A stretch of 64,000 bases of DNA, from assembly GCA_050575255.1 (NCBI GenBank), contig JBNZDD010013656.1, positions 1,981,485-2,045,484 on the forward strand. Reading direction: 5' to 3'. A model generated the notes under the pieces. It was given only the letters and a program-made list of their open reading frames with translations. It made no database searches and was not told the DNA's origin. This document shows, piece by piece, positions 20,067 through 60,575 of the stretch; the first letter of the stretch is position 1; each line of letters opens with the position of its first letter. Both the position numbers and the translations under genes were made by a program. This stretch comes from Harriotta raleighana. Its lineage: Eukaryota.

Positions 20067-20182
20067 CTCGTTGTTTCCCAATATTTATTTCGCAAACTGA
20101 CAGGGTCTTGACACCCTTATAGAATAACATTGGCACCCTGTGTCACGTGACGCCCTTCTTCCAATGGCCTCCTCGGGTAGAC
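20067..20182 (-). other. HoxA3 5'UTR part of the first coding exon, with upstream splice acceptor
   Basis: Acceptor ttttttgttgctccag|GT at 20183/2; contains ATTGG/CCAAT boxes and the GTCACGTGAC E-box. Confidence 0.7.
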
Positions 20183-23100
20183 CTGGAGCAACAAAAAAAC
20201 AAACCATAATGGCGAAATGGTACAAATCCATCTTACTCTCAATAGCAACTGACATGAAAAGCCATAAAAGAAAAAATGCGCAGCAATATTTGGTCTCACA
20301 CAGTCTTGCCCTGGGCAATCCGAGTACAACAGCAGTTTAAAACTGACTCTCACCGGCGAATACCGTGTGTGTCTGGTTTCTGCAAAGCCTTTTTATTTTG
20401 TTTCATCAGGGAAATACAATACCACGTAAGGATTCATGTAGAACTGTGAGACATGGATTTCGGTAGGTTAACTTACATTCCACCTCCTTCTGGGGACTCT
20501 GGAGGTTCAAAAGTCGTCCCTTCTATAACTTACAATTGCAAACCCAATTGTTAACGTAATGTAATTGTTTTGCTAAGCTTGATATTTTTGTGTGTAAACT
20601 GGACTGAAATGTAGCTGCATTAAAATACGCGATTGGTTAGTTGCACCTAAAGAGATCTAATAACCACAATTTTAAGAGGCGAGATTACTGTCAGCGTCTC
20701 TGCAAATGTGTGGAAGAATTAAATTTCAACGATACTTTAATGGTCGTCAACAAAGGCTTCCCGTAAACAAAACCAAGGAATGAAGCAAACGTAAAAAAAA
20801 ACAATCAATGTTCACGAAAATTCGGTTGTCTCTTTAACATTCAGATTAATTTGCAGGTTGGTTCAAGTCACTGTGTTTGAAATTACTGTTTAAATCGCGT
20901 TTTTACATTACTCGAATTTATCGATGTCGATCTACAAATCTTCTTTGCGTATTTCTTTCCGATATCCCAACAAAAAAAATGTTATCCTCAGAATAATTTT
21001 GGTTTTGTTAAAAAAAAGAAACGTTCGCACCATTCCAGAAAGGGAACAAATGTTTTAGCTGTTGTTTTAAATGCATTGCGTGTGAAGTGATGTTTGTTTA
21101 GCTTCCCAGATTTAACCAAACTGACGGTCAAAACTGTTTTGTTTTTAGTTGATTCTAGTTTTAACAGGTCGCCATTTGGTCTGGCGGAAATTTCCAAGGT
21201 TTCCTTTTACTGCCTGAATTCTACCTGCTAAAAACATGATGGATGGAAAAGCACCAGGAACCAGAAAAACCGGCGTTCTTCTCTATGACCACGGTGTGAA
21301 CTTTTCTTCCAACCAAACGATAATAGGCTGTGTCTCTGAAACTGCCTCGTAATTTGATGTATGAGGGTCACTGGGCCGCAGAAGAGTTGGGAGCACAGAC
21401 CATAGAAAGAGTCTGTACCATAAGGCTCTAGTGCTAGATTTAGCACCAGAAATGGTGCTAGATTTACCACCATTTCATTCACAGTTAAGTTGTATCTTCA
21501 CCAAATCCAAGCCGACCTTACACCCCATGATAATCAAGTTGAATTGCATCTTATTTTAAAGAATGTTTAATGGAGCAAGACGTTTTTTTCCAAAACAGAT
21601 TCAACAAAGATTACATTGGGGCCTGCAAATCTTTGTTTCGCCTGCAACTTTTGTGTTTCACGAATAAACACCAGACGTTACTGGATGAGTCTGCAATGCC
21701 TATTTTTAATTAAATGCTATTTTATTGACATAAAGAAAATGGCCTTGCAGAAAACCTTTGTTTCCAAGACCTTTCTTTGCTCCACTCATACTGATACAAT
21801 GCAAGACACATGTTTAGACTGAATTCTCCCTTTTTTTTCACATAGTAAAGGAAATAACTGGAATTATTGGTGACGTAAACTTTGTTCCATGAATTAGAGT
21901 TGTAGTGCGTACTTCCATACATTTATTTGGAAAGGATTTGTTGCGTTTCAAAACGCTAGTTTGGGCAAATCAATGTCTTGTAAGGTGAAAATAAAGCGGT
22001 TTTGAATGCTTCTGTCATATTCAGAATTGTAAACGTAGGGCAATCTGCTGGGGTCAGCGGGGGAGGGCAGGGCTATATGTAAAGAGGTTTTAAATAACAC
22101 ATTTCAGGGTACTTCCGAAATTGGACACCTAATCCCCAAAAGAGGGTATTGCTGGGTTAGAAAGATGGTTTCAATGTATTTCTTCAGAAATGAACCTTCT
22201 TACTCAGCAATCATTCACAGCACTTACAGCCACAGCAACATTGCATCTTGAACCTGGAATCGTGAAACACAACACTGATGCACAGCTGTAGAGAACTGCA
22301 CCGTTACCATAGGCCCTCCAACAAGCCTAAGATTTTGATGTCTTTAGCTATCATACAAGAATAAAAATAATAAACAGTTAGCAGCACTGGGTCTAATTTG
22401 TGTAAAGTTATTAGTAATTTCCATTACTTCTTAGTGGTACGCTTAATGTGTGTTTTAAGTACGTGCAAATATACGATTAGAAATAAGTTCAGCTGATGCT
22501 TATTACTCAATGCACTGTAAAGAATGGGCTCTGTGGACAGCAGATGAAATCCTTGACAATTTGATCTTCCACGCCATAATGTTTCTTCACTTTGTGCTTC
22601 TGTGACCTGCGTGTGCTGTCGGCCATGTTTGTTGCAACAATAAACAATCCCTTGCTCACCTGTGCAGATCACATTCCAACCCTTTCTTGTACGACGAAAC
22701 AATCAAACTTCCACATCATTTTAATCATTTCTCTGCTACCCGCTGCCCGTATTGCTTATTACACCTTCCAGAATGCAAACATTCGTGTGGCAGACGGATT
22801 ACTGGCGAGTTGCACAGATGCTTTTTCACTCTCAGGAACCGCAAAACATTTTATGCGAAATCCGACAACACAACAAGAGAAGTTCTGTCTGTTCAAGTGG
22901 AATGCAAGACAAATCGAATAAGCCTAAGCTGTGCGCTGGTCTGACTTTAAATTTGTGTAACCAACTGTTCCGGATAAGTATTTTGGCGTAAATGTGTGCT
23001 TGAAAATAAAACCATCACCGTGAAAAAGCTTCAGAGATTCTCTATGTTACCATTGAAAGTAAAAAAAATGACGATTTCAAAGAAAAATAATCATTAAACG

Positions 23101-23427
23101 CCAGTAACCGAGACCCTGCTAACAGTAGCAGTTTTCACACTTCAGATTTATAGATTGTGCCTAAGGCGGCTGGAGATAATTATAAAGCCTCCAACGAGAG
23201 AAAATTCTGAGAGAGAAAAATCGCCTTTAAAAGCCTAGTCAGTGACGAAAGAGAAGCAGAAGAGAAAAGGGGACTTGAATTCAAAACCTACGGGTATCAG
23301 TCACAATGTGAAAGGAAGCTATAGCTTGTGAACTCTTCTTGAACCGAGATTTAAGTCATATGGTCATAAATCATTGGGACATAAACTCCGCCATTCACAA
23401 GTGATAGCCTATTTGTGTCCAGCTTAC

Positions 23428-23557
23428 CTTAGCCTCTGACGATAGACGCAGACCCACGGCACAATATTTTCAGATTCACCGAGGGGGGGAAATCGATAAG
23501 CACGAGTTTCCAAACTTCCAAATTAAGTGGAATGAATGCAAACAGTTTCTCTAAGCC
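23428..23557 (-). other. Putative non-coding HoxA3 leader exon (130 nt)
   Basis: Acceptor gcatttcag| at 23558/7 and donor AAG|GTAAGC at 23428/7; Pbx-Hox TGATTTATGA just downstream (~23364-23373). Confidence 0.5.
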
Positions 23558-59965: not shown

Positions 59966-60410
59966 CCAGTAGTTGTATTGCTGAGTCCATAGCTTGGTGT
60001 GGTGGGCGAGTTTGTTTGCAAAGCCCGTAGTGTTTGCAGAAGCCCCTGCCCTGTCATTGTTTGCAAAGCCCATGGCATTTTGACAGCTGTCTGTTGAGCT
60101 CCATCCCAGACCAATGGCTCCTCCATTCTGCCAGCGGAGTTGGGTGACGAGGAGCAGGAAACTGCCCCACAGAACTGAGCCGGGGCTTTTTTAATCCAGT
60201 GTCCCACCTTCCGTGGAGGAATTCGTAGCGACTAACCATGAGGTCTGTGCTCAAGGGGTTGCTGCATTGAAGCTCCATGAGCAATAATCACTGTACCGGA
60301 GAGAGAGAGAGAGAGAGGGGGAGAAAAAACGCAAAAGAAAAAAAAAATCATGCGTTGAAAAAGGCTGCAAAGCTCTTAGATCCGAGCCCAGACGCTCTAA
60401 GCACAAGAAT
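59966..60410 (-). other. Putative first exon from the distal promoter in the A6-A7 intergenic region
   Basis: Lies downstream of a TATA-like TTTATAA (~60434-60440); ends at donor CTGG|GTAAGG; internal acceptor (CT)n..ggtacag| at 60291/0; 5' end is approximate. Confidence 0.55.
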
Positions 60411-60424
60411 GCTGCTCTGTACTC

Positions 60425-60575
60425 GCAAGGGAAATTATAAAAAGTTCATGTTCACGGCTGCAATCCACATGACCGGCAGCGGCCAATGGAGAAACCGAGC
60501 AACTCGTAAAGTTCTATTGCAAAGTTGTAAATTTTCATAAAACAACAACGGATTTATGACATTTCCCCATGACTA
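60425..60575 (-). promoter_or_regulatory. Distal promoter between HoxA6 and HoxA7
   Basis: TATA-like box, CATGTG E-box, CCAAT and clustered TCGTAAA/CATAAA/TTTATG Hox-Cdx sites; corresponds in position to the distal promoter described for long mouse Hoxa5/Hoxa6 transcripts. Confidence 0.7.

Follow-up and report, generated by a model that had tools for sequence, protein, structure and literature searches.

Conserved promoter-like elements and splice sites between HoxA7 and HoxA3 of Harriotta raleighana suggest overlapping long sense transcripts

Results

The HoxA cluster and its candidate leader exons

The window, that is, the whole stretch of 64,000 nucleotides that was analysed, contains Hox1 through the second exon of Hox7, encoded on the minus strand; the gene names are those that we take to follow from N-terminal motifs and gene order. 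We assigned the cluster to HoxA because an Rfam HOTAIRM1 match lies between Hox1 and Hox2 (HOTAIRM1_2, 127 bits, window 8103-8340 on the plus strand, between HoxA1 and HoxA2) and miR-10 is missing. Besides HoxA, the Harriotta raleighana genome has three further Hox clusters, which we named B, C, and D by gene content. The presence of Hox3 in the C cluster, and of Hox5 and Hox2 in the D cluster, fits a cartilaginous fish. For comparisons between paralogues we used 100-120 kb per HoxB, HoxC, and HoxD cluster, with collinear anchors chained to HoxA. An Rfam scan of window 19000-62000 (E<=1) gave no match other than one to isrG on a CTG repeat, which we attribute to chance. A short interspersed repeat is found in anterior HoxA (window 1166-1260, 18600-18705, and 18851-18950) and occurs many times in the three other clusters; it had no match in window 19000-64000.

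An earlier note on this DNA had proposed a chain of non-coding exons that starts between HoxA7 and HoxA6, skips A6, A5, and A4, and ends at HoxA3. The ten splice motifs of this chain and its exon lengths were all found where they had been placed (Table 1).

Table 1. Features of the HoxA7-HoxA3 interval in window coordinates, and miR-10 copies of the other clusters (a slash marks an exon boundary)
Feature	Position	Strand	Remarks
Distal promoter element between HoxA7 and HoxA6	60371..60578	-	CCATTGG 60489, E-box-like GTCATGTG 60473, TATA-like TTTTTATAAT
Predicted exon 1	59966..60410	-	donor TGG/GTAAGG; rival donor at 60208
Exon-1 donor	59966	-	TGG/GTAAGG
Four-cluster element	48832..49041	.	CACGTG and CATTAAA or TTTTATGG sites; antisense donor 49185
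Leader exon 2 (109 nt)	48723..48831	-	best supported claimed exon
HoxA4 acceptor	38796..38838	-	TTCAG/AAATTAATGACCATG, first exon base 38808, just ahead of HoxA4 start; 4/4 clusters
Unclaimed candidate exon (163 nt) 3' of HoxA4	35279..35441	-	AG and GT kept in B only; weak
Leader exon 3 (178 nt)	33473..33650	-	starts with GTCACGTGAC and TAAT-rich element
Claimed exon 4 (81 nt)	32273..32353	-	motifs present, otherwise unsupported
Promoter-like element	27445..27718	-	TTGACGTA and CCACGTG; strong donor GCG/GTGAGT at 27445
Leader exon 5 (130 nt, without ATG)	23428..23557	-	donor AAG/GTAAG
HoxA3 coding exon 1, untranslated start	20067..20182	-	strongest claimed acceptor; CCATTGG, GTCACGTGAC, one out-of-frame ATG
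HoxA3 acceptor; HoxA3 ATG	20182; 20066	-	AG and start codon present
mir-10, cluster B	L006:5858-5933
mir-10, cluster C	L029:8150-8224
mir-10, cluster D	L016:4974-5045

Splice motifs compared with background

We counted exon-like pairs (AG...GT, 60-250 nt) in window 20183-60440, taking the weakest claimed sites as thresholds and scoring with a splice matrix. The sense strand held 159 pairs (69 donors), the antisense strand 130 (67), and 30 local shuffles 123±19 (65±9). As sense counts resemble those of antisense and shuffled DNA, the chain is not definable by motifs alone, and we rejected motif strength as proof of an exon. Each internal exon had also been credited with a pyrimidine-rich acceptor and a good donor. 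This description does not hold for all of them: according to the same matrix, the acceptors of exon 3 (top 8.7% of AGs) and exon 5 (top 13.8%) and the exon-4 donor (top 4.2% of GTs) are modest. Exon 2 ranked first among the 159 sense pairs; exons 3, 4, and 5 fell outside the top 40.

The similar frequency of exon-like pairs in antisense and shuffled DNA is in line with the exons being chance splice-like motifs, selected for their agreement with a human gene model known beforehand. We regard this explanation as highly improbable for the set as a whole, given that sites are retained in paralogues that the earlier note did not have in view, but it may hold for exon 4. Local alignment of exon 4 against B, C, and D, with 200 shuffles each, gave nothing above the shuffles, and a genome search returned only the exon itself. 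Beyond its motifs, the claimed exon 4 has no support.

A distal promoter element is present in all four clusters

The distal element has matches in HoxB (E 1e-47), HoxC (5e-13), and HoxD (5e-10), and hence occurs in 4/4 clusters; mouse D2 is likely its orthologue. The four clusters do not differ in CCATTGG and a TCATGTG site, but the TATA is not invariant. The "TATA promoter" previously placed at ~60435 lies in this element; its box, TTTTTATAAT (~60443-60434), is not a full TATAWAW and is TATA-like in A only (TATGAT in HoxB, TATTGT in HoxC, TCTTGA in HoxD). By analogy with the TATA-to-start spacing in mouse, transcription would start at ~60410.

The body of exon 1 had no alignable counterpart in the paralogous clusters. 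The first GGTAAG past the promoter lies at +476, +441, +553, and +360 nt in A, B, C, and D, respectively (chance 0.03-0.07 each, in a window chosen post hoc), and the exon-1 donor may be common to the paralogous clusters, more weakly than the sites of exons 2, 3, and 5.

Exon 2, the adjoining element, and miR-10

Exon 2 follows the A5 stop after 1,723 nt on the 3' side and would be preceded by an intron of 11,134 nt. At its acceptor, A and B have TTTGCAG/ATTG in common, on the border of an element with 75% identity. Between these two clusters, the exon body is 52% identical, compared with 46±4% for random pairs (95th percentile). Relative to its projected place, the donor GTAAGT recurs at +10 nt in B, +2 nt in C, and -4 nt in D. 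The probability of donors within 10 nt by chance is 0.019 x 0.032 x 0.017, or ~2e-4 given the 19 donors screened. In C and D the donor is kept, while the acceptor is not clearly so.

In its position and its motifs, the four-cluster element next to exon 2 corresponds to the HOXA-AS3/HOXB-AS3 promoter. Strong donors on the plus strand at 49185, 44430, 33794, and 27877 are kept in HoxB and/or HoxD (33794 in B), and three of these four lie directly upstream of promoter-like elements. They are likely the first-exon ends of AS3/AS2-type antisense RNAs from bidirectional promoters. Between A5 and A4, we also observed an element conserved in all four clusters at 41625-41808, with GGTGAA-n-AGGTCA, and another conserved element at 44040-44156 with a 30-base exact A-B match. 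Two AATAAA motifs (51913 and 51921, minus strand) lie just ahead of the HoxA5 start and three more 3' of HoxA6; A6 may or may not differ from its mouse counterpart in using a separate poly(A) site.

The intron past the exon-2 donor holds miR-10 in B, C, and D, where the microRNA lies between this donor and the Hox4 acceptor. For this reason, the ancestral unit likely doubled as a miR-10 host, and HoxA would have retained the exon scaffold after loss of the microRNA. A search of the HoxA window with Rfam found no mir-10, and HoxA thus lacks the miR-10-hosting feature of the hoxb3a splv2 type.

Candidate alternative acceptors and first exons between HoxA4 and HoxA3

A predicted alternative landing site for upstream exons is the HoxA4 acceptor at 38808, which was absent from the proposed chain. 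An obligatory chain that skips A4 finds no support given an acceptor kept in 4/4 clusters, and this acceptor, together with the conserved donor at 27445, makes one fixed A4-skipping chain unlikely as the sole product. 3' of Hox4, at 34995-35074, lies a further four-cluster element with a DR5-like AGTTCA-n5-AGGACA. We take it to resemble the Hox4 3' retinoic-acid enhancer.

Both the acceptor and the donor of exon 3 are kept in B; in D the element is kept, but its AG is not. Given its opening with GTCACGTGAC and a TAAT-rich element, exon 3 likely doubles as an internal promoter. B and D both retain the motifs and the donor of the element at 27445..27718, which was overlooked in the earlier note and is likely an alternative first exon of HoxA3. 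For exon 5, the donor is retained in B and D, whereas the AG is found in B, at a low score; past the exon follows a conserved intronic element with a DR5 (GGTTCA-n5-AGTTCA) at 23345. The HoxA3 acceptor at 20182 is kept in B and D.

Retention of splice sites in paralogous clusters

In total, sister clusters retain splice signals of four of the five claimed non-coding exons. This support covers the sites of exons 2, 3, and 5 and, less strongly, the exon-1 donor, but not exon 4. In a pair test against HoxB that required both dinucleotides, with criteria that were partly post hoc, 51 of 140 non-coding sense pairs were testable. Seven of the 51 kept both dinucleotides, corresponding to 4/18 distinct donors: those of exons 2, 3, and 5 and of the unclaimed 35441-35279. 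Three of these four being claimed exons gives p=0.005, again under partly post hoc criteria. This test, the later of the two, asked for AG identity only, after the exon-5 acceptor had fallen below the earlier score cut-off.

In the decoy test, donors were kept in at least one paralogue for 3/3 testable claimed sites (of five in all) vs 6/24 decoys (p=0.03), and acceptors for 3/4 testable ones (again of five) vs 20/120 (p=0.02); shifted-window controls gave 10/216 and 47/940. Counted per site and paralogue, the comparison was borderline (4/7 vs 10/47, p=0.065; 3/9 vs 21/226, p=0.052). In C and D, the pairwise aligner of this test failed to recover the exon-2 donor; it also left the exon-5 acceptor below the score cut-off.

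Antisense donor tests kept sites about as often (7/24 vs 10/40), and 6/44 antisense pairs kept both dinucleotides, with poor acceptor scores in B. Conservation of splice sites thus does not single out the sense strand, which fits the known antisense RNAs.

The promoter element at 60371..60578 and the sites that delimit exons 2, 3, and 5 are common to paralogous clusters and hence date back at least to the cluster duplications. Some non-coding donors have outlasted their own exon sequence over both duplications, which argues for selection on splicing. A different explanation, which we consider unlikely, is that conservation of the blocks reflects their role in the DNA as promoters and enhancers (E-box, CDX/HOX, and retinoic-acid elements), each of which would start only a short sense or antisense transcript of its own, the kept donors being the ends of independent first exons and no 40-kb chain existing. 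The exon-3 acceptor and exon-5 donor sit within conserved DNA elements. CACGTG boxes lie at 48943, 33649, 27689, and 20149, that is, at or beside exons 2 and 3, near 27700, and in the A3 acceptor exon, and mouse Hoxa 'leaders' with E-boxes function as promoters (PMC9456764). The retention of the exon-2 donor in C and D without a clearly kept acceptor, and that of antisense donors, would also agree with such elements. However, TTTGCAG/ATTG is the same in A and B exactly at the block edge and is followed by divergence, as for a used acceptor, and spliced cDNAs that span the region have been reported in mouse (PMC2868907) and zebrafish (PMC2148072).

Upstream ATGs of the predicted leader

The leader had been described as rich in uORFs. 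This is correct as a count, but the 20 ATGs of the predicted 1059-nt leader equal the background (19.4 expected by chance), and we rejected an enrichment. Ten of the ATGs are in exon 1, none in exon 5, and one in the last exon; the latter (CCAATG) is the only upstream ATG seen in A, B, and D. With ~20 upstream ATGs, the full leader would yield little HoxA3 protein, which would likely come from shorter leaders, given that exon 5 is free of ATGs and the last exon carries a single one. A poorly translated long form agrees with reports on mouse embryos, in which long D2 transcripts yield no HOXA5 protein and the short Hoxa5 transcript alone does (PMC2868907), and on zebrafish hoxb3a splv2, described as posterior, weak, and miR-10-repressed (PMC2148072). 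Given the mouse data (PMC2868907), the idea of an anterior gene placed under a posterior promoter likely applies at the RNA level only.

Discussion

We consider it probable, on the basis of the sequence comparison, that a conserved ladder of promoters from A7 to A3 gives rise to overlapping long sense transcripts, which have non-coding exons in common and are alternatively spliced into HoxA3 or HoxA4. Each promoter-like element between HoxA7 and HoxA3 adjoins a splice donor. Transcription from ~60410 would pass through A6 and A5 and join exon 1 to exon 2 over the 11.1-kb intron; from exon 2, splicing could proceed to the A4 acceptor, or via exons 3 and 5 to A3, and the elements at ~48900, 33650, 27700, and 20150 may also be able to start transcripts.

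That the exact six-exon chain is the dominant isoform, gives HoxA3 protein posteriorly, and helps to hold the cluster together seems distinctly unlikely to us. Every motif of this chain is present, and long human HOXA3 isoforms have several small leader exons. Mouse cDNAs also run from D2 towards Hoxa3 (PMC2868907). Against this, exon 4 lacks support, the candidate 35441-35279, the donor at 27445, and the A4 acceptor are conserved as well or better, and the leader would carry its twenty upstream ATGs; moreover, the long transcripts are reported to be untranslated for HOXA5 in mouse (PMC2868907), and zebrafish splv2 to be weak and miR-10-repressed (PMC2148072).

Returning to the reading with several promoters and alternative splicing, we put forward, as speculative and on balance doubtful, that the pre-duplication Hox cluster had a sense scaffold (a Hox7-Hox6 promoter, a first-exon donor, a Hox5-Hox4 exon with the miR-10 intron, and Hox4 and Hox3 acceptors). 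Its donors would have been kept in all four clusters, in HoxA even after miR-10 loss, because the act of spliced read-through transcription, rather than the RNA made, would control the genes in between and hold Hox3-Hox7 together.

Comparison with known systems

A close counterpart is the mouse D2 promoter between A6 and A7, from which the cDNAs AK051552 and Y11717 start, with a common exon ~12 kb downstream annotated to Hoxa3 (Coulombe 2010, PMC2868907). In both species, a conserved Hox7-Hox6 promoter has a putative TATA (at -8905 from Hoxa5 in mouse, ~8.5 kb from the A5 ATG here), and the second exon lies in the a5-a4 spacer (~12 kb downstream in mouse, past an 11.1-kb intron here). Unlike the mouse transcripts, which were defined by RACE and cDNA, those described here are predicted from sequence, and the available text of the mouse study does not address donor conservation in four clusters (PMC2868907). 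Orthology to the mouse exons rests on position and spacing, because our comparison covered the Harriotta raleighana clusters only. For the mouse Hoxa3 leader sequence, the supplements of PMC9456764 gave only two primers and the main text of PMC8172242 none.

In zebrafish, the miR-10c host hoxb3a splv2 begins with an exon in the b5a-b4a spacer, continues with two exons in the b4a-b3a spacer, and is then joined to hoxb3a (Woltering and Durston 2008, PMC2148072). As compared by eye, 16/17 bases of the 3' primer used for it agree with the HoxB3 acceptor exon of Harriotta raleighana. In contrast to the unit described here, it is a HoxB paralogue and starts 3' of b5a and not between 7 and 6 (PMC2148072); the present HoxA unit is without miR-10.

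Polycistronic Hox clusters, such as HOXC6-5-4 with a common promoter and D4-D3, have non-coding exons common to several Hox genes (Mainguy 2007, PMC1831499). Judged by position, the HoxC common promoter would be the paralogue of the element at 60371..60578. With respect to the feature of more than one downstream coding acceptor, we found the A4 acceptor kept in 4/4 clusters and the A3 acceptor in A, B, and D, their usage being predicted only. The table of the Mainguy study lists no A7/6-to-A3 unit. Polycistronism was already proposed as a constraint on Hox clustering in 2007 (PMC1831499), so this idea, which the earlier note had offered as its own inference, is not new. As regards the antisense strand, the HOXA-AS3/HOXB-AS3 promoter has been described as an element with CDX sites that lies 3' of Hox5 in paralogous clusters and whose conservation extends to cartilaginous fish (Degani 2021, PMC8330917); the available text of that study deals with the antisense product, and our subject is the adjoining sense exon.

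Our literature search, of incomplete coverage, returned nothing relevant on a chondrichthyan HoxA3 leader, and we do not claim its absence from print. A catshark Hox transcriptome (Oulion 2010) reportedly contains untranslated exons common to neighbouring Hox genes, some of them proposed to derive from the ancestral cluster. The available text of a review that cites the catshark study lists alternative forms of HoxA11, B9, B4, B3, and D3, with HoxA3 not among them (PMC9456325). Both the phenomenon and the constraint hypothesis are already in print, and the four-cluster retention of donors may be unreported. The long Hox transcripts predicted here are likely the cartilaginous-fish version of the multi-promoter kind described in mouse and zebrafish, and the analysis provides base-level predicted splice sites for them in a slowly evolving jawed vertebrate.
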